From Eledone cirrhosa (lineage: Eukaryota): a stretch of DNA of 64,000 nucleotides. The notes under the pieces are model-generated. The model did no database searches. It saw nothing but the letters and a program-made list of their open reading frames with translations, and was not told where the DNA came from. Positions within the stretch are counted from its first letter, which is position 1. Each line of letters starts with the position of its first letter. The stretch is taken from contig OZ024741.1 of NCBI GenBank assembly GCA_964016885.1, positions 362,638,001 to 362,702,000 of the forward strand. The letters run 5' to 3'. Made by a program: the position numbers and the translations under genes. Shown piece by piece: positions 3,727-64,000 of the stretch.

Positions 3727-4525
3727 TTTCATATAAACATATTTTTATTTAAGGTATTTGAAATGGAAATGTGAAAAATCTTTTCCTAAGCTCTGCTGCC
3801 TTTAACTTTTTGGTGTCAACCTATCTAAAATTGCCTCTGATTCTATAATATGAAATCTGTAATTTTAAAGTGTTCATATTTAAATTAAACCCTTCCATTA
3901 TAATTTCATTTAACCCTTTAACATTTAAACTGACCGAATCCAGCCAGAATTCTCTCACCTTTGGCTGCTCATACTTATGTTAAGGTATTGATCTCCAAAT
4001 AAATAACATCAAAATCTCATGGATTTGATATGTGAGATAATTATGTGAAATAAAGTGTTTACCGTGAAAATACAATAGTAAATATAGAGTAATGTTAAAG
4101 AGTTAAGAATATTTTGTTAAGTTGCAAACACTGACTCAATAAGAATGAGATCAGTTATTTTACTCAATTCTTCCAAATTTTTTATTATTTTCAAAGTTAG
4201 TTTGAAAAAAATGCAGTGTATTTAATTAGGAATATGGTTAATACTTAACTCAAGTTTCCTAGTGTGAATAAGAAATCAATACATATAGTGTCAGTCCAGT
4301 ACTAGAATCTTTTCTCTCTCTCATCAGTTGTGTTCAGACCTGGAAAGAAATGAGCTCTACCAGGTTTAAAAAAGCCAAAACATTTTTGATCAATTAATGC
4401 TCCAATTATCACCAACTATTTTGCTATGTATTTTTGATCTTTCACTGGCTTCAAATTATGAATTTTTATTTTTAAAACTAAAGAGTGGTATGCCTTTATC
4501 CATTAAGCCACTGGAACATGTACTT

Positions 4526-5611
4526 TATCATCATCATCATCATTTTACGTCTGCTTTTCCCTGCTTGCAAGGGTTGGACGGGTCCTATTCAGCACAGCAT
4601 CTCTCCACTTATCATGGTCCTTCATCATCTCCTCCGTGAGTTTCAGCGATCTGAGGTCTGCTCTCACCACCTCCGCCCATGTTTTTCATGGTCTACCTCT
4701 ACTGCACCTTCCTTCTACTGTGCTTTCTTGGCACTTCTTTACCCAGCGGTCATCCTCCATGCTCATCACATGTCCATACCATCTCAGCCTTCTTTCCTGC
4801 ACACCACAACTTATCCCTCTTATACCAAGTTTCTTTCTCAACTCGTCTATGCTTGGCCGTTCACGCACATTAACATTGCACATCCAACGGAGCATACTTG
4901 CTTCATTTCTCTCCAGCCGCGCATATCCTCTGCAGTTGCTGCCCATGTCTCACTACCATGCAACATCACGCATCTCACACAGGCATCGTATAACCGTCCT
5001 TTCGTACGCAGGGAGAAACCCTTCTTTATCAACACAGGAAGCAGCTCCCTAAACTTCTTCCAACCCGTCCTTATTCTAGATACTATGGCCTCAGAACACC
5101 TCCCCCCCTCCTCTGCTAATCTGATCACCTAGGTACCGGAAGCTATCAACCACTTCTATAGAACCCACCTGCATTGGAAAATGTGTCTATGACTGTGATT
5201 ACTACTGCCAACTTTCCCTGTACATTTACTGCATACGTAGTTTCCCCTACTTTTTAGTTTGCCTGCTATCCCACTACATCTCTTGTGTACCCAAGATCTG
5301 CATTGCATACATTTTATGGAATTTATACCAGTTCCTTTCCTACATATCGAACATGGCCATTTCCCTGATGAAATCAGAGTATTGTCCTCTCTTCTACTTA
5401 TCAACACTTTTGTCTTAGCTATGTTCACTCTCAGTCCTCTTGATTCCAACTGCTGTTTCCATAGCCAGAATTTATTCTCTAACTCCTCTACTGATTCTGC
5501 TATAAGAACCAGATCATCAGCATAGAGAAGTTCCCATGGGCATCCAGTCTTAAACTCCTCTGTTATGGCTTGGAGGACTATAATGAACAAGAGCGGGCTG
5601 AAATTCCTCAC
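4526..5611 (-). mobile_element. 5'-truncated RTE-clade LINE (RT C-terminal part, Cys-rich finger, (ATG)n tail), frameshifted
   Basis: SPLLFIIVL, ELLYADDLVL, WPCSICRKG..WVHKRCSG, RRLRWYGHV. Confidence 0.88.
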
Positions 5612-6133
5612 TAAACTCCAGCAACGATATCTATCAGTCCTACTTCTGTAACTTCAAGCTAAACTTCTTTAAAGAAAGGAAAGCAGCTGATCATCAGATC
5701 AGACCAAGAAAAGTATTTTTGCATTGTTTTTCTTTTCTTTTCATTGATACTATCCGCTGGTCGCAACTCCTGTAATAAGTAGGCTGGATTTGAACTCAGA
5801 ATACACAAAGCCAAATTAGATACTGCAAAGCCTCCTGTCCAGCTCTTTAATTATTCTGCCAATCCATCAGACCTGGGCTGACACTTTATTTATCAACCCC
5901 CAAAAGATGGAAGGCAAAGTTGACCTGAGTGGGATTTGAACTCTGAAAGAGCTGGAACAAATACTAAAGCATTTAATCCAACACTCTAACAACTCTGCCA
6001 ATTCGCGACCTTATAGATGGCAAGCAAACATTAAGAAACACATACATCCAGGCTTAATCAATAAAATATTTTTTTATAAAAACTCAGTCATTTCAAAGAA
6101 ATTGATTAAATTTTATATTTCCTTGTATTCCAG

Positions 6134-20266: not shown

Positions 20267-21422
20267 ATCCTGCAGGCTATAACAGAAGAGTTTAAGACTG
20301 GTTTCCCATGGGAACTCCTGTATGCAGATGATCTAACACTTATAGCTAATCTATGGCAGAATTAGAGAAGAAAATCCAAATCTGGAAGCATGGCCTAGAA
20401 TCAAACGGTCTTAAAGTCAACCTGACAAAGACAAAGGTAGAAGGGAAAATAGGGTTCTAATCCCCTCAGGGAAATGGCCTTGCTCAGTGTGTAAGAAAAG
20501 CGTAGGTAGAGATTCCATCCTCTCACAAATGCAAACTATGGATACACAAGGGATTTGAGATCTGAGGTAGGTTAGCTAAGAAGGTAGGTTTTACATGTTG
20601 CCATTACACAGGAGCAGTAAGCAGTAAATACCCACAGGAAACAAGTGCTATCAAATTCTTTGAGGGTTCTGTAGAAGCAGTAGACAGCTTCTGCTACCTG
20701 AGTGACCAAATCAGCAGTAGAGATGAGTGTTCTGAAAATACAGTAGCCAGAGTGAGAACAGGATGGAAAAAGTTCAGGGAACTACTAGAGGTTTTTCCCT
20801 CAAAACAAAGGGCATATTGTACAATGTTGCATGGCCGCAAGACCTGGGCGCTGTGTACAGAGGACCTGGAAAATTGGAAAGAAATGAAGCTTGCATGCTT
20901 CAATGGATGTGTAATAGTTATATACATGAATGGCAAAGTATAAATGAACTGAGAGAGAAACTGGGCATAAGAGGGATCCAATGCAATGTGCAGGAGAGGA
21001 GATTGTGTTGGTGTTGACATGTGATGTGTATGGAGGACCACAGCTATATAAAAAGATGCAGAGTGCTCAAAGTTGATGGAAGCTATGGAGTAGGAAGACT
21101 TGGGATGAGGTGATAAAAGCTGTTCTTGCACAATTCTAACTCAAAGGTCACACTGTAAAGTGGTTGGTGATAGAAATGGCATCCAAAGATAGAAGTCTTG
21201 TTAAACAAAGGGTTTGGAAGACCCTTCACTTGTGTCAAAGACATGACAACTTCTGTTGTGCACTTGGTAGAACATAAGACCGTACGTAAGCAAGATAACT
21301 GACCCCTAGCCTGTATGGGAGGTCAGTAACCCCGCTTCAGTAATGACTTGGTCTATATATAGACCTATCCAACCCTTTCTAGCAGGCAAAGTGGACGTTA
21401 AAACAACAATGATGATGATGAT
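20267..21422 (+). mobile_element. 5'-truncated degraded RTE LINE with 3' UTR
   Basis: QAITEEFKTGFPWELLYADDL, RTGWKKFRELL, (GAT)n tail near 21410. Confidence 0.85.
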
Positions 21423-21430
21423 ATATATAT

Positions 21431-22477
21431 ATATATCATAAAACATGTCTATAGAATCACAAGATAAAATATATACTATTTCCTCTCCCAATTAGCATAA
21501 TTAACTATATAAAAAATCGAATAGACCAGGCTATACGAATGAGGCTTCTATGAGGGAATCTCCGACAAATAACCAAAACTAGCGCTTCGCGTCAGCCGTA
21601 GCAGAATATTTATTGAATATTTCGACAGCGTAATCGCCTAGATACAGTCAACTAAGCAGAATTAGGTTTAAAATAAACTAGGAGAAAATAGAATACATTT
21701 AAATACCTCTACCATGGTTTCGTCCGTGTTTTGAGTTTTCCAATAATTATGTAATAATTATATAAACTCGAGCGCCAGATTCTTCAGGAAGCTCGCTCAT
21801 ATCTAGACATTAAATTTTCCAAAACGATCGCGCCAAGAATTCATTTTAAAATGGCTAAAAATCGTGACGTAGTCGCGGTCAAGTTGGAAGGGGTGTGGTA
21901 GTTGCTTATGACTGGTGGCATTTTTGCTAGAAAGCACAGCACAATACAGCCAAATTTGTATCTCAACCTAGTGGGAGATTATTACATATAAAAGTTTACA
22001 TATATATATACATACACATACATATACGTGTTTTGCAACTGGTCACTTTGTGGCTCAATGAAAAATTAATAAATTAAACAATCAGAGCTATATATCATAA
22101 AACATGTCTATAGAATCACAAGATAAAATATATACTATTTCCTCTCCCAATTAGCATAATTAACTATATAAAAAATCGAATAGACCAGGCTATACGAATG
22201 AGGCTTCTATGAAGGAATCTCCGACAAATAACCAAAACTAGCGCTTCGCGTCAGCCGTAGCGGAATATTTATCGAATATTTCGACAGCGTAATCGCCTAG
22301 ATACAGTGAGGAAATAGTATATATTTTATCTTGTGATTCTATAGACATGTTTTATGATATATAGCTCTGATTGTTTAATTTATTAATTTTTCATTGAGCC
22401 ACAAAGTGACCAGTTGCAAAACACGTATATGTATGTGTATGTTTATATATATGTAAACTTATATATATATATATATA
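21431..22477 (-). mobile_element. Penelope-like non-autonomous element / retrozyme: partial tandem with 5' inverted segment, in (TA)n
   Basis: Direct repeat 21437-21648 = 22096-22307 (offset 659); 22308-22460 is the reverse complement of 21992-22144; TA microsatellite at both ends; internal hammerhead motif; no long ORF. Confidence 0.7.
21705..21792 (-). ncRNA. Minimal type I hammerhead ribozyme motif
   Basis: Minus strand reads GCTTC-CTGAAGA-[long stem II: ATCTG..CGGAC, GAGTTT..AAACTC, ATAATTAT hairpin]-GAAA-C-CATG-G-TA-GAGGT. Stem I is GCTTC/GAGGT and the stem III loop is the palindrome CCATGG. Confidence 0.72.
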
Positions 22478-23587
22478 GGGAGATAGTGACAAAGAGATTG
22501 GTATTTGTATCTTTGTTATAAAAAGCAGCATTAGGATGGCAAATCCAGCCATAAAACACTTCTTCAAAAATTCCTGTCCAACCCATGCCAGCATAGAAAA
22601 CGAAGCATACCTCATGATATACATCTATATACAACTCACTCCCTTCAAGACCACACCCATGATCTGACACTATCTCATTTTTGTATGACCCCTCCTCCCA
22701 CTCCTGTCAATGTCTCCCCTGTAGTGGTGCGATGATAAAAATGCATTCAGTTCACCCTGTAAGGTGGTAGTTCTGGAATCAATAAAATCTCCCAGTACAT
22801 GCTATAAAGTAGTTGGCATTAGGAAGGGTATCCAGCTGTAGAAACCAAACCAAAACAACATATGAGCAAGACGTGGTCACCTGACCAGTCTAGCCTCAGC
22901 ATGCAATAACCCGTCTAACCCAAGCATGGAAAATAAATGATAAATGATGATGATGATTATATATATATATATATGTGTGTCATCATCAACGTTTAATGTC
23001 TAGCATGGGTAAGACAAGTTGTTCTGTTGTGAGACAAGCCAGATCAGTTAACCATGTCTTGCTCATACAGGACTGATTTTGGCTTGGTTTCTACAGCTGG
23101 GTGCCCTTCCTTATGCCAACCACATTTACAGTGTGTACTGGGTGCGCCAAAACAACCACTTTACAGTGTGTGCTAGGCACTTTTTGTTGTGACACGTACA
23201 TGGCCACTTCACAGTGTGGAGTAGGTGCTTTTTGTTGTGGTCCCAAAATAACCACCTTACAGTGTGGAATGGGGATTGTAGAGGTAAATCTAGGGTGTAG
23301 GGCTTATCGGATGAAGGGTGGGGGTATTAGGACGTGGGAGGTATGTGGCAGAGGGGAGGGGAAAGTGGAGCATACTAGATGTATGCTTCAACCCATGCAC
23401 ATGGGAAGGCAGGTCTTCTGTACTACTGCTTAACACCAGAGATCTCAATCTTGTCTCTGTATATGAAAAAACTTATGGAACTCAATTTTAAAAGGCTAAG
23501 TTCATCGTTGAGATTAGAGTTGCTGATATATGTTTGAAAGACAACCCATGAAAATATATTATTACTGGCTTCATTTTCCCCTTGTAG

Positions 23588-28874: not shown

Positions 28875-31337
28875 TCACCAAATGGTATAGCCCAATTTGT
28901 TTTCTGATCTCAGTACATTCTTTGGTTGTTCAGTGCTGGCATTTGATTTACCAGAGGAAGAAGAAAAGTCATCAGAATACTCAACTTGATCTCCACTTGT
29001 TTGCCACCAGATATTTTCATCACTAGGTTTATAAGAACTCACCGACTCTGTATTTATTGATTCCCTGTTCATCATTGGTAGAATTCTTTGAGAACTTTTC
29101 TTAGTTGGAAAGAGGATTTGAGATAATTTACTATCTACACCGAGGTTATCATGGTCATCTATGGAACTTTTCATTCTTTCTAACTTTGAAAAAGGCATGA
29201 TTATTTCTTCTTGGTTAATTTCCTTATCTATAATTTCTTCCTCTGAGGAAACAATCCCAACTGTTGATGTTTCTTTCCTATCATAATGATTGCTCATTGA
29301 GTTAGCTTCAGATTCTGCTTTCAATTTCATTTGGGATATAAAGGATTCCATTTGAGAAAATTCACATGACTCAGTTATATCCTCAATGTTTGCAATTTTA
29401 GTATTATCTCCCTCATCAATTTTATTCTCAATTTTTGGAGTTTCTTCAGCAGAAATGTTAGATTTATATTCCTCGTAAGTTTTACTAAGGCCCCCACCAG
29501 CAGTTAAAATTGTAGTCTGAGCAACTTGGATTGATTTTTTCTCATTATCACTTAATGAAATGATAATGGGGTCTTCCTTCAAACTGTTGTCATCTTTTCC
29601 CAAATCTACAACTTGTTCTTCCTCAATTATAATTTTATCTTGTGCTTTTATTGTTATAGTTTCATATCTTTTAAAATCTTTTTCTTCTTGTGTTTCTACT
29701 TCTATGCTTGGTGCTTCCACCGCTATTCTTGGCGATTCAAATTTTGTTTCTGGTGCTACCACTTCTAATTCATGTACTTTAAACTCTTCTGTAGATTGTT
29801 TCTCTACCATGACAGTATTTGTGTCACTTACATTCTTGCCGATATCAACAAATCTAGCTTTCTGACAAGTTCTACTAATGCTCTTCTCAGCAGACAAGTC
29901 TTGTTGTGAGTGAAGTCTTTCTAAACGCAAAGTATAGGTTTTTGTTAGACCATATGTCAATAAAGATTTTGTGTTTGCAATTCGAGGTGTGGTCCGTATC
30001 CAATTTCGATGTTTGACATTCTTTTGTTTGTTTGGCATTTTCCTCTTCACCTGCTGAGCTTTATTTCCCTTAGTAGTCTGAGTTCCTTCTGATAAGTAAT
30101 TCTCTCTGGGATCCTGCTGTTTGATGTTACAACAAATTTGGTTTGTTAAAGAAGGAATATCTATAGTACTAAGTTCTTTAAGAATACTAGTTAATACAGG
30201 AAATTTACTTTCAAAATTGGATTGGTTGCTTATATTATTTTGTGCAATGGGCAAAGGAGAACTGCCAGATTTTGTAGCTTGGTGTTCCTTCACATCATAT
30301 TCTATGGCTTCTTGAGAAATATCTGACTCTCCATCAGCTTTGCTCATGTAAAGCTGGTCTAGCTCTTCATGTGATGGCAAAGGAATATGAAAAGATGGTT
30401 TTCCATCATTATGATAAAACATTGGTGGTGGTGAATAAGGCTCAAAAGATGTTTCATCATTTGAAGTTTCCTTAACCCACTTGTGTGTCCTATCTGGATT
30501 TTCAATATTTTCTATGTTATTCTGTGTTAAGTTCTTACTTTCTGAAGGTTCACATAAATATATACTGACATCCTTCTTTTCTGTTATGTTAGCTTCTATC
30601 CCTGCATTTGAGTCAGTTATTTCTTGTTCACTCTCGTCAGATTTGTCACTGTTAACAGTGGTTGAAGAATACTGCTTGTCTGTCTTTGTAATATCTGTTT
30701 GGATTTCTACTGACTTGGTATTTACATCAGTCTCACAGTTGTTCTCATTGGTAGTGTCTGCTGCCATATTTCTTGGTTCGTTCTCTGTGATGTGAGTTAA
30801 AAGGGTTGATCCCAAACACAAAAGACGGTAACCAACGGTCATATAACCAACTTCTTTGCCCATCAGACTGTAGATTCGCAACAATCCTTTATTTGCAAAC
30901 ACTTTGGGAACGTTAAACCTGTCCTCTTCAAATTCCGAACAGACTCGTTCCACAGCCGTATCCAATTTAATAGATGCACTACCCAATAATTTAGGAGTGT
31001 CAGGGAAACTATCTAATATTAACAAATACAAAGGGACATTACATAGATGATGTTTAAGATTCTCCGGAGACATTTTAAACAGACAAGACTTACCACGTTT
31101 GAAGGCAAACGTGTCTTCGGGGTCCTTAAGGCAGTCTAACTGGTTCGGTATCGACCACAAAGGGTCCGCTGTTAGAGTCTTTCTCACTTTATCAGCCGAC
31201 TTAGCATCAATAATATCTATTGTAATAGCAGGGAAATCTAACAACTTACAAGCGATACTAGGTATTCGGCACGTTACTCCAGGCACATATAACTTTTCTA
31301 TAACGACTTCTAATGAAAACAGTGCTAATGTTTCCAT
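28875..31337 (-). CDS. MAP10: Microtubule-associated protein 10 (MAP10/KIAA1383)-like, single coding exon, about 820 aa, nested antisense in MCM8 intron 16
   Basis: Uninterrupted 2.46-kb ORF; first ATG at 31337 (AAAATGG context) with an in-frame stop upstream. Motifs recalled from the MAP10 family: LFSLEVVI, KLLDFPAI, FKRGKSCLF, PKLLGSASI, GYRLLCLGSTLL, PPPMFY, FPVLTSILKELS, LTYGLTKTYTLRL. Confidence 0.85.
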   Translation of the reverse strand: METLALFSLEVVIEKLYVPGVTCRIPSIACKLLDFPAITIDIIDAKSADKVRKTLTADPLWSIPNQLDCLKDPEDTFAFKRGKSCLFKMSPENLKHHLCNVPLYLLILDSFPDTPKLLGSASIKLDTAVERVCSEFEEDRFNVPKVFANKGLLRIYSLMGKEVGYMTVGYRLLCLGSTLLTHITENEPRNMAADTTNENNCETDVNTKSVEIQTDITKTDKQYSSTTVNSDKSDESEQEITDSNAGIEANITEKKDVSIYLCEPSESKNLTQNNIENIENPDRTHKWVKETSNDETSFEPYSPPPMFYHNDGKPSFHIPLPSHEELDQLYMSKADGESDISQEAIEYDVKEHQATKSGSSPLPIAQNNISNQSNFESKFPVLTSILKELSTIDIPSLTNQICCNIKQQDPRENYLSEGTQTTKGNKAQQVKRKMPNKQKNVKHRNWIRTTPRIANTKSLLTYGLTKTYTLRLERLHSQQDLSAEKSISRTCQKARFVDIGKNVSDTNTVMVEKQSTEEFKVHELEVVAPETKFESPRIAVEAPSIEVETQEEKDFKRYETITIKAQDKIIIEEEQVVDLGKDDNSLKEDPIIISLSDNEKKSIQVAQTTILTAGGGLSKTYEEYKSNISAEETPKIENKIDEGDNTKIANIEDITESCEFSQMESFISQMKLKAESEANSMSNHYDRKETSTVGIVSSEEEIIDKEINQEEIIMPFSKLERMKSSIDDHDNLGVDSKLSQILFPTKKSSQRILPMMNRESINTESVSSYKPSDENIWWQTSGDQVEYSDDFSSSSGKSNASTEQPKNVLRSENKLGYTIW

Positions 31338-31480
31338 TTTCTGCACCGTTTTATGTGAAACTCATTAAACATTACTATTTAATTAATCTCTATGCCATTC
31401 TGGAAAGTTAACATTTTACAAAAAGAAAAAATAGAGCTAAAAATGTTTGAAACGTATTATTAAAAGAAGTCCATGCGTTT

Positions 31481-35062: not shown

Positions 35063-37822
35063 AAGCTCACGACAATCACTTGATCACCTATAGATCAGGG
35101 GAACATGCCAGTCAGATAGATTATATCCTTCCCAGAAGACGTGACAAAGTGTTGGTTGCAAACACTAAATCCCTCTCCCGCGAAGAATGCACCTCCCAAC
35201 ATAGCCTCATAGTTAGTGACCTCATAGTCAGGACGAGACGTACTCGACAACAGAGGAGGACTACTCTAAGAAGAAGAATATGGAAGTTAAAGGACCCCAC
35301 AGCCAGTAACAAATTTAAAAGCATACTACTCGATGCTTTTGACAGTAAGGAAGAGCAATTAGAGACGTACAGTATAGAAGAACAGTGGGAATTCCTGAAA
35401 GTTAACCTGCTGAAGACGACAAATGAAATCTGTGGCTGGAGCAGACCTATAGGCAGGAGGAGAGTAACATGGTGGTGGAACAGTAAGGTGGAGGAGTCAA
35501 TCAAGGCCAAGAAGCAAGCTTGGAAAGTATGACGGGATGGGGGAAGTAGAGAACACTATCAAATGGCGAGGAGGGAAGCTAGGAGACAAGTGTACCTTGC
35601 AAGAAGGGAAGCAGAGGAAAGAAAGTTCAAGCATGTTCTACAACGCGAGGACCAAAAATGTGAGGTGTTCAGGATTGCTAGACAATGTGTCAAGGAAAAT
35701 CGTGATATTGTCGGGGAGAAGTGTGTACGTAATGATGATGGTTTACTTGCTGTCACTGATACTGATAAGAAGGTAGCTTGGAAATGTCACTACGAGAGGC
35801 TACTAAATGAGGAGAATAAGTGGGAAAAAGATAGTCTGCCCCAAATCGATCCAATAGAGGGAGCAGCAGTGCAAGTTGAAGGTAGTATAATAAGTAAAGC
35901 AATCAAAGAGATGAAGACAGGCAAAGCAGCTGGGCCTTCGGAGATAGTTGCTGAAATGCTGAAAGCATCTGGATCGGTGGGACACTATGGTCTCCCAGAT
36001 AGTAAACCAAGTCATACAGAATGGGATTATACCAAATAACTGCTACAAGGGTAAAGGAGATGCCTTAGACAGGGGAAACTATAGAGGCATTAAATTAATT
36101 GACCAGGTCATGAAGGTCACAGAAAAAGTTATAGCGCAACTAATCAGAGAGCGAATTGATCTAGATGAAATGCAGTTCAGGTTTGTGTCAGGTAAAAGTA
36201 CGACAGACGCTCTTTTCCTTGTACGACAACTACAGGAGAAGTACCTAGCTAAAAGTAAACCCCTATACTTAACTTTCGTTGACTTGGAGAAAGCCTTTGA
36301 CAGAGTCCTCTGCTCCATTATCTGGTGTGCTCTCAGAAAACTAGGTGTTGATGAATGGCTCGTGAGAGCTATACAAGACATAACAGTCAGCAAGTTTAGA
36401 ATTAACAACGAATATAGTGAAGAATTTAGCGTAAAAGTCAGTGTTCATCAGGCCTCTGTCCTTAGCCCCCTCCTATTTATTATTGCCCTTCAGGCTATAA
36501 CAGAGAATTTCAAGACCGGCTGCCCACGGGAACTTCTATGCGCAGACGATCTAACGCTCATAGCTGAATCAATGGCTGAACTAGAGAAGACCTTAAAATT
36601 AACTTGTCTGAGACTAAAGTTCTAGTATGTAGGAAGGAAAATAGGGCACTGGTCCCCTCTGGGAAATGGCCATGCTCAGTGTGTAGGAAAGGAGTAGGCA
36701 GAAACTTCATTTTATGTCCCAAATGCAAAGAATGGGTGCATAAAAGATGTAGTGGGATCACAGGTAAACTAACCAAGAACATAGATTTTATATGTGGCCA
36801 GTGCTCAGGTGCAATAAGTAGTAGCAAATTCCCACAGAATACTAGCTCCTTCTATTGCCCAAATGTTTCTACAGAAGTAGTAAACACCTTCCGTTACCTG
36901 GGTGACAAAATCAGCAAATCAGCAGTGGTGGTGGGTGCTCTGAAAGTACAGTAGCTAGAGTCAGAATGGGATGGAAAAAGTTCAGAGAGCTTATACCACT
37001 ATTGGCCGCTAAAGGTTTCTTCATAAAAATGAAAGGCAGACTGTATGATGCCTGCATACGAACAGCAATGTTACATGGCAGTGAGACATGGGCATTGTGT
37101 ACAGAGGATCTGCGCAGACTGGAGAGGAACGAAGCTTGCATGCTCCGCTGGATGTGTAATAGTAATATACGTGAACGGCAAAGAATAAATGAACTAAGAA
37201 ATTAGGAATAAGAGGATCAGATGCTGTTTACTTGAGAGAAGACTACGTTGGTATGGTCACGTGATGCGCTTGAAAGACGACAGCTGTATAAAAAAGTGCA
37301 GGGCGATTAAAATAGACGGAAACTACTGAGTAGGTAAACCCAGAAAAACCTGTGACGATTTGATAAATTCCGACCTTAGACACTTACACCTCTCCAAGAC
37401 AATGTCACTGAACCGAGATCTTTGGCGCTACGCAGTAGTACAGAAGACCCGTCTTGCCTAAGTACAAAGTGAAACCTACAGTCAGTAGGCACCTCCTAAC
37501 CAAAAATACACCCCCACCCCCATCTACACCTAAAGTTATGTTGGTGCCACAACATCCAGTCCTAAATAAATGAGGTCGTGTAGGTGTCAACAAAAAAACA
37601 CACAGTTCACGCTGTAATGTGGTCATGTAGGTAACACAGTAAAAACCTCCCAGTCCACACTGTAAACGTGGTTGGTGTTAGGAAGGGCATCCAGCCGTAG
37701 AAAACCCGCCAGACAGTCCTATACGAGCAAGACAACCAATTTTGCCTCAAATTGGGAGAATTCCCATCTAAACCCATGCTAGCGTGGAAGATAGACGTTA
37801 AACGACGATGATGATAATGATG
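35063..37822 (+). mobile_element. RTE-clade LINE (end of endonuclease, RT, Cys-rich finger, 3' UTR), frameshifted
   Basis: SQIDYIL..SQHSLIV, NYRGIKL, FVDLEKAFDRV, LSPLLF, LCADDL, WVHKRCSG; tail gacgatgatgataatgat. Confidence 0.92.
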
Positions 37823-40652: not shown

Positions 40653-42300
40653 AATAATAATAATAATAATGAAATTATTGTGTACAGTGCTCAGGTGCAC
40701 TACAACTCATCAAAGGTGCATGTATAGTACATAGAATAATGTACAAATGTCAGGAAAATGAACAGTGTATGAGTCATGATATAATAATAACAATAATGAA
40801 ATATTGTGTACAGTGCCCAGGTGCACCACAACTCATCAAAAAAGTGCATGTACAGTACATAGGGCAATGCACAAACATCAGTAAAATGAACAGTGCACGA
40901 GTCATGATACACACATGTGTGCATGTGTATGGAAGGGGTACATCAGGTGTAATTTTGGCGTATTTCGGGAAGCATGAGTGTCTTAAAGGATGCAGTGTCT
41001 CGGCAGCTAACAATTGACGCAGGCAGTTTGTTCCATGCTTCAACTCTGAGCGTGAAAAAATGTCTGCGAAAGTCATGGGAGCTGTGCTGTTTTCTTATCT
41101 TGTAGGCATGTCCACGTGTGTTAGACACATGGAGATCAAAGAGGCGCTCAGGGTTGCAGTTGGCGAGATGGTTAAAAACTTTGTGGGTATTCACCAAGTC
41201 CATTGCCAGACGTCGGAGCTTCAATGAATCCATGCCCAGGGAAGCAAGGCGTTCAGAGTATGGTAGGTGTCTGATGGAGGGTATGCGCTTGGTTGCACGT
41301 CTCTGAACAGTTTCCAGGAGGTCAATGTTCCGAGCAAGATAGGGGTTCCAGACTGATGATGCAAATTCCAAGTGTGGTCGCACCATAGCTGTATACAGTG
41401 ATCATGATAATATATATACAGTAAATCCCCAACTTACGAACTAGTCACATTCCAAGAAGCCATTTGTTAATCCCTGTGGTACACCAAAAGACATTTCATT
41501 CAGTGAAGAATGCTGTCCTAGAACCGTGACTACCTCTCTTTGACTGAGAAAGAAGGACTTCAACCAGTTAAAAAGATCATCCTTCACACTCATTGCAGAG
41601 AGTTTTGCCATAAGTGTTTTGTGCGGCACAGAATGAAAAGCTTTAGCAAAGTCAAGGTAAACAACATCCACCCATGAGCCACCATCAGTGATCCGGGTGA
41701 TGTCTTCAAGAAATTCGATAAGTTGATCACAGCAGCTGGAGTTAGGGATATATCCAAATTGCGAGGGCCGGATAAGACTGTGAGAATTCCAGAAGTTCCA
41801 GAGTGTTTCTCTGACACAGGATTCCATCAGTTTGGCAATGCCGCTAGTAAGACTGACTGGACGATAGTTGACTGATGACGTGCGGTCACCCTTTTCGAAC
41901 AGAGGAATGACACTGGTAGTTTCCGACTGCTCCGGAGTAGCACCGTTGTGAAGACAGAATTGAAAGAAGAGTGAAAGCTGGTGCAGAAGGAAATACCCAC
42001 CACGTTTGAGAAGCAGGTACGTAACACCATCAAGACCAGGAGAGGCATGGTTGCATTTATTCTTAAGGTGATGTCACAGCATTGCAGGTGTAAATTCCAT
42101 AGTTGTTATAGAATTTGATGTCAGAGGTCGTGGAAATGGTACGTTTTGGTTTTCAACAGTGAAAATGCCTGCATAGCATTCAGCAATGAGTTCTGCACAT
42201 TCTTTGGGATCGTCAGTAATCTTGCTTGTGTGGTGATTGTGAAGAGGACCAATTGGAGAGTGAGGTCTCTGCTTTGAATGTACATATTTCCAGAACACCT
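40653..42300 (-). mobile_element. CR1-group LINE, internally deleted, with duplicated 3' tail
   Basis: NYRPVSLTS, DVVYLDFAKAFHSVPH, VRPHLEFASSVWNPY, ETVQRRATK; (TAA)n tails at 40653 and 40781. Confidence 0.85.
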
Positions 42301-61997: not shown

Positions 61998-64000
61998 CAT
62001 CATCATCATCATCATCGTTTAAAGTCCATCTTCCACGCTTGCATGGGTTTGGATGGGAATTTTCCCACTTGAAGCAAGATTGGTTGTCTTGCTGGTATAG
62101 GACTGTCTGGCGGGTTTTCTACGGCTGGATGCCCTTCCTAACACCAACCACGTTTACAGTGTGGACTGGGAGGTTTTTACCATGTTACCTACACGGCCAC
62201 ATTACAGCGTGGACTGTGTTTTTTTTTTTTGTCGTGACACCTACACGACCTCATTTATTTCGAACTGGATGTTGTGGTACCAACATAACTTTACATCGAA
62301 AGAGGTGGTGTGGATGGGTGAGGGTGGTGGGACAGGGGTGTATTTTTGTTAGAGGTGCCTACTGACTGTAGGTTTCGCTTTCTACTTAGGCAAGGCGGGT
62401 CTTCTGTATTACTGTGTAGCGCCAAAGATCTCAGTCCAGTGACATTGTCTTGGAGAGGTGTAAGTGTGTGAGGTCGGAATTTATCAAGTCGCCCCAGGTT
62501 TTTCTGGGTCTGCCTACTCCGTGGCTACCGTCTATTTTTATTGCCCTGCACTTTTTTATACAGCTGTCGTCTTTCATGCGCATCACGTGACCATACCAAT
62601 GTAGTCTTCTCTCGAGTAAACAACATCTGATCCCTCTTATTCCTAATTTCTCCCTTAGTTCATTTATGCTTTGCCGTTCACGTATATTACTATTACACAT
62701 CCAGCGGAGCATGCAAGCTTCGTTCCTCTCCAGTCTGCGTATATCCTCTGCACACAATGCCCAAGTCTCACTGCCATGTAACATTGCTGTTCGTATGCAG
62801 GCATCATACAGCCTGCCTTTCATTTTTAGAGAGAACCCTTTAGCGGCCAATAGTGCTATAAGCTCTCTGAACTTTTTCCATCCCGTTCCGACTCTAGCTA
62901 CTGTACTTTCAGAGCACCCTCCACCACTGCTGATTTTGTCACCCAGGTAACGGAAGGTGTCCACTATTTCTATAGAACCATCTGTGCAATGGAATGAGCT
63001 AGTATTCTGTGGGCACTTGCTGCTACTTATTGCACCTGAGCACCAGCCACATATAAAATCTATATTCTTAGTTAGCTTACCTGTGATCCCACTACATCTT
63101 TTATGCACCCATACTTTGCATTTGGGACATTAAATGGAGTTTCTGCCTACTCCTTTCCTACACACTGAGCATAGCCATTTCCCAGATGGGACCGGTGCCC
63201 TATTTTCCTTCCTACAAACTAGAACTTTAGTCTTAGGTTAATTTTAAGGCCTTTTGATTCTAGGCCATGCTTCCATGTTTGGAATTTCTTCTCTAGTTCA
63301 GCCATTGATTCAGCTATGAGCGTTAGATCATCTGCGTATAGGAGTTCCCGTGGGCAGCTGGTCTTCAACTCCTCTGTTATAGCCTGAAGGGCAATAATAA
63401 ATAGTAGGGGGCTAAAAACGGAGCCCTGATGAAGACCTAATTTTACACTAAACTCTTCACTATATTCGTTGTTAATTCTAACCTTGCTGACTGTTTCTTT
63501 ATACATAGCTTGTATAGCTCTCACAAGCCATTCATCAACACCTAGTTTTCTAAGAGCCCACCAGATAATGGAGCGGAGGACTCTGTCAAAGGCTTTCTCC
63601 AAGTCAACAAAAGCTAAGTATAGGGCTTTACTTTTAGCTAGGTACTTCTCCTGTAGTTGTCGTACAATGAAAAGAGCGTCTGTGGTACTTTTACCTGACA
63701 CAAACCCGAACTGCATTGCATACGCAAACAAGTAATTGTCATCGACTTAAAGTCCAGCAACTTCACCATTTTTCATCTCCTTGATTGCTTCTTTCACCCT
63801 GTAACTGTCAATTTTGATAGTTGGATTAGTTGGGGAGGGAGTGGCAGTCTCCCTACCTCCCATTCATTTTCCACAAAAATTAACCTCTCTGTAGCATTTC
63901 CATGTCTCTCTTTTTTGAGCATCAGTGTCCTTTCAAACACACTTTTCCCCAACAATATCTTAATTCACACTGACACACTGCCTTGCAATGCAGACCACCT
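61998..64000 (-). mobile_element. RTE LINE (RT, Cys-rich finger, 3' UTR) plus an upstream older RTE fragment running to the window edge
   Basis: QFGFVSGKSTTDA, FVDLEKAFDRV, LLYADDL, FRYLG, (CAT)n tail at 61998; inverted relative to the 35-37.8 kb copy. Confidence 0.92.

Follow-up and report, generated by a model that had tools for sequence, protein, structure and literature searches.

A 659-nucleotide hammerhead-bearing repeat family of the octopod Eledone cirrhosa, probably a non-LTR retrozyme copied by a Penelope-like element

Our analysis of a 64,000-nucleotide (nt) stretch of the Eledone cirrhosa genome (assembly GCA_964016885.1, contig OZ024741.1, forward-strand positions 362,638,001 to 362,702,000; here called the window, with position 1 as its first letter) revealed a noncoding 659-nt repeat that carries a hammerhead motif and belongs to a large and young family. 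The repeat is very probably a non-LTR retrozyme that is copied into (TA)n tracts in trans by the reverse transcriptase (RT)/GIY-YIG protein of an autonomous Penelope-like element (PLE), with priming on two DNA strands and at two sites. The element works like a PLE insertion and has the sequence-level attributes of a non-LTR retrozyme: a type I hammerhead motif in the unit, genomic tandems with at least two hammerheads, and a noncoding body with a G+C content below 50% that is not tRNA derived. Retrozymes are known as a class; what is new here is the host group and the insertion statistics. The pattern of ends, the TA target, and the single haplotype of each insertion are direct observations.

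The copy in the window is built of two arms that meet head to head. Arm 1 (871 nt, with the RNA sense on the minus strand) comprises a full noncoding monomer (21437-22095), whose left edge is a fixed 3′-end site, S1, and a partial second unit (22096-22307, minus strand, monomer positions 1 to 212). Arm 2 (22308-22469, plus strand) is inverted and runs from monomer position 49 to 1 and then through a 113-nt tail, positions 659 to 547, the right edge of which is a second fixed 3′-end site, S2. This tail between S1 and S2 is terminal only on arm 2 (22357-22469, plus strand), and its other copy is internal to arm 1 (21983-22095, minus strand). The direct repeat with a 659-bp period described in the first-pass annotation is present (21430-21648 and 22089-22307; spacing, 659 nt; 219 nt including TA or 212 nt without it; 3 mismatches), and so is the inverted copy, which measures 162 nt (21983-22144 and 22308-22469, 98% complementary) instead of the 153 bp originally given. 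The left flank (21409-21436) consists of (ATG)n followed by the (TA)n target microsatellite, while the right flank (22461-22477) is (TA)n that overlaps the TA-rich end of the tail. Both these TA boundaries and the CpG-rich, noncoding nature of the unit had been recognized at first reading: the CpG observed/expected ratio of the monomer is 1.19 versus a median of 0.23 in 97 tiles of the window, one of which reaches 1.18. The G+C content of the unit (31 to 36%) is not higher than that of its surroundings. No stop-to-stop frame of at least 120 amino acids overlaps the unit, and no tRNA was found in it.

Several other repeats lie in the same window. Broken fragments at 4482-5653, 35533-36625, 41441-42073, and 62431-63746 read like LINE reverse transcriptases, judging by their motifs. 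A 48-bp tandem (2.5 copies, 23147-23268) lies within a high-copy SINE-like repeat, and two inverted copies of the SINE-like repeat that holds this tandem occupy 22806-23126.

A search of the genome with the monomer returned 2,862 first-look candidates, and among the 40 that were scored, full-length matches were mostly 96 to 99% identical and included several tandem dimers or trimers. An exact 30-mer tag specific for the subfamily of the window copy (subfamily A) occurred 219 times and an exact 30-mer from the S1 end 2,268 times, compared with 0 to 1 occurrences of the reversed controls. At least four subfamilies can be told apart, with sisters at approximately 80% (B), 67% (C, with a 690-nt unit), and 68% (D) identity; intermediates exist. 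Position-ordered A copies differ from the column majority by a median of 1.9%, and subfamily A is therefore young. The exact hammerhead core, described below, occurs 2,661 times. The earlier view of a young, multicopy, nonautonomous element with a monomer of about 659 nt that resides in TA repeats is supported. The longest array contains approximately 15 units over 10.2 kb between TA tracts (L172 9685 to L173 9917, G000:C12:24329686-24339917); its units are 4.8% apart, and it bears signs of local duplication.

To describe the anatomy of the insertions, we mapped 124 distinct A loci, 51 found by similarity and 73 by the exact tag taken in genome order, with duplicates and the long array excluded. 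On the hammerhead strand, 3′ ends fall at two sites 113 nt apart, S1 (monomer position 1) and S2 (position 547), and the 5′ ends of the arms are scattered. Of the single-arm loci, 55 have their 3′ end at S1, 10 at S2, and 2 elsewhere, and (TA)n adjoins that end in 65/67; TA is found on both sides in 33/44 two-arm loci. The head-to-head architecture of the window copy recurs at 47/124 loci. Where both outer ends lie at defined sites, 35/37 of these loci pair S1 with S2, and one each reads S1/S1 and S2/S2 (P = 5e-9 against 0.5); the remaining 10 have one end at neither site. Loci drawn from the sister subfamilies and from mixed samples showed the same asymmetry in 15/16 classified cases, including two A loci sampled a second time. 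With a strict regular expression, subfamily D gave three S1/S2 and two S1/S1 loci out of 5, one of the latter two reading S1/S2 by eye. Arms longer than one unit are common (69/182), and this frequency, along with that of the inversions, bears out the partial tandems and inversions of Penelope type that had been proposed. The expectation of many permuted or tandem copies in TA repeats held for the tandems and for TA; random circular permutation is not what we found, as the 3′ ends lie at two fixed sites.

The point at which the two arms join differs from locus to locus. At 32 clean junctions the overlap averages 2.7 nt versus 0.76 nt at random (a BLAST overlap, hence approximate), and 15 other junctions contain inserted or unmatched bases. 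A second primed 3′ end, with the tail on it, accounts better for the inverted segment than an L1-style 5′ inversion does. A one-sided tail of 30 to 40 nt has been described as a trait of PLEs (PMC3846280, PMC8557442), and the purified PLE protein of Anolis (PAc) makes nicks in AT-rich DNA and extends both strands; its reverse transcription begins at two internal sites, which mark the limits of the tail (PMC11167929). Autonomous PLEs of this genome bear a one-sided tail too: among 34 loci screened, two clean cases and one three-ended case have it, and L072-type elements carry a 44-nt tail of their own on one arm only. The tails of the autonomous families seen here are 38 to 44 nt long versus 113 nt in the unit.

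These ends also bear on a purely DNA-based origin, in which the repeat would be a satellite or a Helitron/MITE-like element that owes its spread to recombination or to rolling-circle replication of DNA, and its inversions would be fold-backs or assembly errors in TA tracts. Such tracts are error-prone, the 10-kb array shows local duplication, and none of the listed contig records (four runs, high summed depth) bridges the inversion junction of the window locus. We nevertheless hold this origin to be highly improbable: it accounts neither for fixed 3′ ends combined with scattered 5′ ends nor for a strict S1/S2 asymmetry that is common to autonomous PLEs, the junction is different at each locus, and the unit has G·U covariation specific to the RNA strand (see below).

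Next to their ends, the insertions are marked by internal uniformity. At 11 diagnostic sites, alleles agreed in 110/114 comparisons between tandem units and in 46/52 comparisons between inverted arms, compared with 9,067/58,143 (16%) between loci. Variants private to a locus were shared in 42/203 tandem and 12/125 inverted cases. Sharing of variants within a locus could also stem from later gene conversion, from duplication at the locus, or from polishing of the assembly. On these counts, the units and arms of one insertion share one haplotype, which fits either a circle or a homogeneous multimer as the template. Among the mapped A loci, we found no convincing parent-daughter pair that would separate the two.

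The genome also contains PLE open reading frames (ORFs) of 800 to 1,100 amino acids with RT and GIY-YIG domains, some of them unbroken; intact frames include one of 938 amino acids in L062 and others of 800 to 900 amino acids in the L072-type family. The unit itself has no ORF with an RT and a GIY-YIG endonuclease and is nonautonomous. No partner PLE emerged from the approximately seven families that our incomplete sampling covered. An alternative is that the unit is the pLTR or 3′ end of an unsampled autonomous PLE and that its copies are 5′-truncated products of that element. The promoter-like motifs, the hammerhead, and the AT-rich end do resemble the 3′ untranslated regions (UTRs) of resident PLEs, the approximately seven families were drawn from more than 10,000 GIY-YIG candidates, and retrozymes of Xenopus are reported to be often homologous to pLTRs (bioRxiv 10.64898/2026.07.22.740005). 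However, a profile of 28 units had no match in the UTRs of 80 PLE-bearing loci from these families, apart from neighboring insertions, and the first-pass idea that the unit may simply be the pLTR of a known autonomous element does not apply to any PLE sampled; nor did the ends shared with a PLE ORF that had been expected turn up among these loci. The sequence upstream of a unit is in every case a further unit, an inverted arm, TA, or flank not shared between loci, and pure arrays extend to about 15 units. No PLE ORF match lies within 1.5 kb at any of 23 distinct position-ordered clade loci. PLE matches do occur near 5/86 A-tag and 2/30 D loci, where they belong to different families, a scatter that fits shared TA targeting. 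Relatives of the unit beside PLE ORFs in L061 and L072 were considered as pLTRs and rejected, since further copies of these PLEs stop short of it and TA is the target of both elements. Taken together, we think it improbable that the unit is a piece of such a PLE, and we continue with a nonautonomous repeat that is copied in trans.

A number of further PLE-related observations were made along the way. A young and abundant PLE family (L357, L358, L359, and L360; 26,337 first-look candidates) has open frames of up to 905 amino acids, many copies that are 95 to 98% identical in the endonuclease region, and a 44-nt one-sided tail; it is a candidate helper. Atypical or degenerate hammerhead-like motifs lie 110 to 200 nt before the 3′ ends in PLE 3′ UTRs of L062/L063, L072-type elements, L080, and L060, for example with CAGAAGA replacing CUGANGA and with a palindromic stem III. 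One A-family trimer is immediately adjacent to a broken, GC-rich PLE (L178 6400-8100) whose family is distant, with approximately 30% identity to the others. In the window, the 828-codon ORF at 28875-31361 (minus strand) was examined as a possible PLE ORF and rejected, as it encodes the host microtubule-associated protein 10 (MAP10; PF14924). It is 61 to 62% identical to Octopus proteins, its nearest named relatives, after which named matches are less complete and score far lower, in agreement with the cephalopod host that had been suggested from the letters.

The single hammerhead core that had been read on the minus strand of the window copy is indeed there, as a type I motif (21705-21792). 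It consists of a 5-bp stem I, CUGAAGA (21787-21781), a long stem II, GAAA (21721-21718), and a palindromic 2-bp stem III, with the predicted cut between 21710 and 21709. Rfam models did not detect it, either at gathering scores or at E values of up to 10. The 15-mer core has 2,661 exact occurrences in the genome compared with 1 for its reversed control, and 135 distinct copies that retain an intact core show covariation in stems I and II; this conservation argues against a chance motif. Stem I is paired in 81 to 99% of these copies at its five positions, with C-G/U-A exchange at the fourth, and positions 2 to 5 of stem II are paired in 84 to 97%. The first pair of stem II (10.1-11.1) is A·C in 65, U-A in 26, and G-C in 21 of the 135 copies across subfamilies; subfamily A has A·C where G-C is usual, and subfamily D combines G-C with a longer palindrome. 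A G10.1-C11.1 pair and an additional base following position 9 characterize the minimal hammerhead of PLEs (Cervera & de la Pena 2014, PMC4209133). This combination is not found in the unit, whose stems pair without an extra base, while the palindromic stem III/loop 3 of the minimal hammerhead is present; hammerheads with a short palindromic stem III have been proposed to cleave as dimers (PMC4209133). Axolotl HHR_Amex2 is a similar case: it too has a two-pair stem III with a tetraloop, the basal pair of its stem II is mismatched, and its cleavage is weak in the monomer and better in the dimer (PMC7229834). It differs in being a 350-bp amphibian unit and in having U·U as the mismatch, compared with A·C here.

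Other hammerhead-like motifs were encountered as well. A pattern with a short stem II and the same palindrome gave 33 matches versus 3 in the control, many of which look like deleted units or chance. A different noncoding tandem unit with a period of 459 and a hammerhead-like motif of its own lies between TA tracts at L063 6510-7419 (G000:C5, approximately 100.722 Mb) and, judging by these features, is probably another retrozyme family. Unrelated hammerhead-like motifs were also seen in short TA-associated repeats (L064 8828, L069 603, L077 2990, L079 3639, and L080 1156). They suggest that the genome contains many more small parasites of PLE type.

Two further segments of the unit may be functional. 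The approximately 250 nt between the hammerhead cut and S1 (21460-21709, minus strand) form a conserved, long, irregular hairpin in which 96% of cells are paired and 8 pairs are changed on both sides, a result above all 500 shuffles. One set of 16 related sequences served both to derive the structure and to test it, and the comparison lends support without amounting to a probability. Taken by itself, the sequence of the window copy folds there at a z score of −2.0, and the G·U covariation within the hairpin is specific to the RNA strand. The hairpin may be a protein-binding element. Folded as a circle, the whole A monomer is no more stable than shuffles (z scores of −1.0 and −0.1), and the corresponding score for subfamily C is −4.4. 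Upstream of the hammerhead, a candidate internal Pol II promoter region (21826-21960, minus strand) contains one motif in 18/28 units and a second in 12/28, counts that carry no background rate. We presume the former to be E2F-like and the latter, seen in sister subfamilies, to be CCAAT; a CRE/E-box-like motif presumably accompanies them.

How the observed arms could arise may be pictured as follows, with an enzyme, a promoter, an RNA form, and a ribozyme activity that we infer. A tandem or partial-tandem copy would be transcribed on the hammerhead strand from its internal promoter. A PLE protein, probably as a dimer, would bind the RNA near the hairpin and the tail and would nick both strands of a TA tract, so that cDNA would start from S1 on one strand and from S2, 113 nt further 3′, on the other. 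The two cDNAs would then grow inward and join via a few matching bases to give a head-to-head insertion, with arms of 871 and 162 nt in the window copy; if one arm survived, a single-arm copy would result. Arms longer than one unit would require a template that repeats one sequence, either a circle released by the hammerhead or an uncut multimer, and we regard these two forms as roughly balanced. Several observations weigh against the picture as a whole: the absence of a partner among the sampled PLEs, a tail far longer than those of PLEs, the A·C pair of subfamily A, arm 5′ ends that show no excess at the cut, the ordinary stability of the A circle, and the less clean ends of subfamily D.

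The uncut form is the core of another reading, in which the unit is a PLE parasite whose hammerhead serves no purpose in mobility: the templates would be uncut multimeric transcripts of homogeneous tandem loci, and no circle would be formed. Such transcripts could come from the 19/124 A loci with at least two hammerhead regions in one arm, and PAc in vitro uses uncut RNA and still inserts hammerhead mutants (PMC11167929). The A·C mismatch at the base of stem II points the same way, as do the 5′ ends of the arms, which are not enriched at the cut: 4/180 fall within positions 266 to 282, in a sample biased toward copies that hold the hammerhead region. Against this, the core and the palindromic stem III have been kept across subfamilies that are approximately 33% apart, with covarying stems, and subfamily D has both the longer palindrome and the G-C pair. 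Moreover, private variants are homogenized within an insertion, yet the units of the examined array differ by their 4.8%, a divergence that a multimer would reproduce. We give this circle-free route a substantial chance, somewhat below even. The 5′ end of the array mentioned above lies within approximately 15 nt of the predicted hammerhead cut.

The unit shares much with the metazoan non-LTR retrozymes described so far (PMC7229834; bioRxiv 10.64898/2026.07.22.740005): a noncoding, low-GC unit with one type I hammerhead, an occurrence as monomers, dimers, and multimers, a short palindromic stem III suited to cleavage as a dimer, and coexisting PLEs. Its 659 nt exceed the 150 to 450 bp of Cervera & de la Pena 2020 (PMC7229834). 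Lengths of 51 to 972 bp, with a mean of 650 bp in ray-finned fish, have since been reported (Li, Clavereau & Pollet 2026, bioRxiv 10.64898/2026.07.22.740005), and the unit, which the first-pass annotation had considered long for an animal retrozyme, falls inside that range. It differs from those retrozymes in that its copies are mostly dispersed partial tandems or head-to-head pairs and not arrays, in its very long stem II, and in having no pLTR homologue in the approximately seven sampled PLE families; a match to a known transposable element is reported for 24/57 retrozyme families of Xenopus (bioRxiv 10.64898/2026.07.22.740005). With the EN+ PLEs (Penelope/Poseidon, Neptune; PAc of Anolis, PMC11167929; the Penelopes of Adineta, PMC3846280), it has in common partial tandems, head-to-head inversions, a tail at one end, two 3′-end sites, AT-rich targets, a hammerhead in the terminal repeat, and microhomology at junctions. 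Unlike them, it lacks an RT/GIY-YIG ORF, has a tail of 113 nt instead of 30 to 40 nt, and has formed at least four subfamilies through a diversification of its own. The nonautonomous Chlamys elements such as MRC1 (Craig et al. 2021, PMC8557442) are comparable as noncoding PLE parasites with pLTR-like and multicopy head-to-tail insertions. The literature that we searched yielded no cephalopod retrozyme, and ribozymes go unmentioned in the main text of the O. vulgaris repeat paper (PMC13282606). The family or its relatives may already be catalogued as "Penelope" or "unknown."

Earlier arguments that PLEs mobilize animal retrozymes drew on hammerheads common to both, on their co-occurrence, and on homology to pLTRs (PMC7229834; bioRxiv 10.64898/2026.07.22.740005). 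In the present retrozyme-like family, the integration signature of PLEs can itself be counted, across many young copies: each of the two sites has one arm, both arms come from one haplotype, and microhomology joins them. This signature fits the in vitro behavior of the sole purified PLE protein (PMC11167929). As a natural 659-nt template with mapped start sites and a conserved hairpin, the unit could be used for testing how PLEs produce head-to-head insertions and whether a hammerhead or a circle is needed. A bolder reading, which we put forward tentatively and consider rather unlikely, is that the family is an independent lineage of circular-RNA parasites with a ribozyme, which diversified in the genome of an octopod where no parent PLE survives; the two subunits of a PLE dimer would both copy one RNA circle, with a separate fixed start for each DNA strand. 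If that were true, the genome would hold hundreds of natural records of the unsolved integration step of PLEs, and they would be direct structural evidence that PLE proteins move animal retrozymes.
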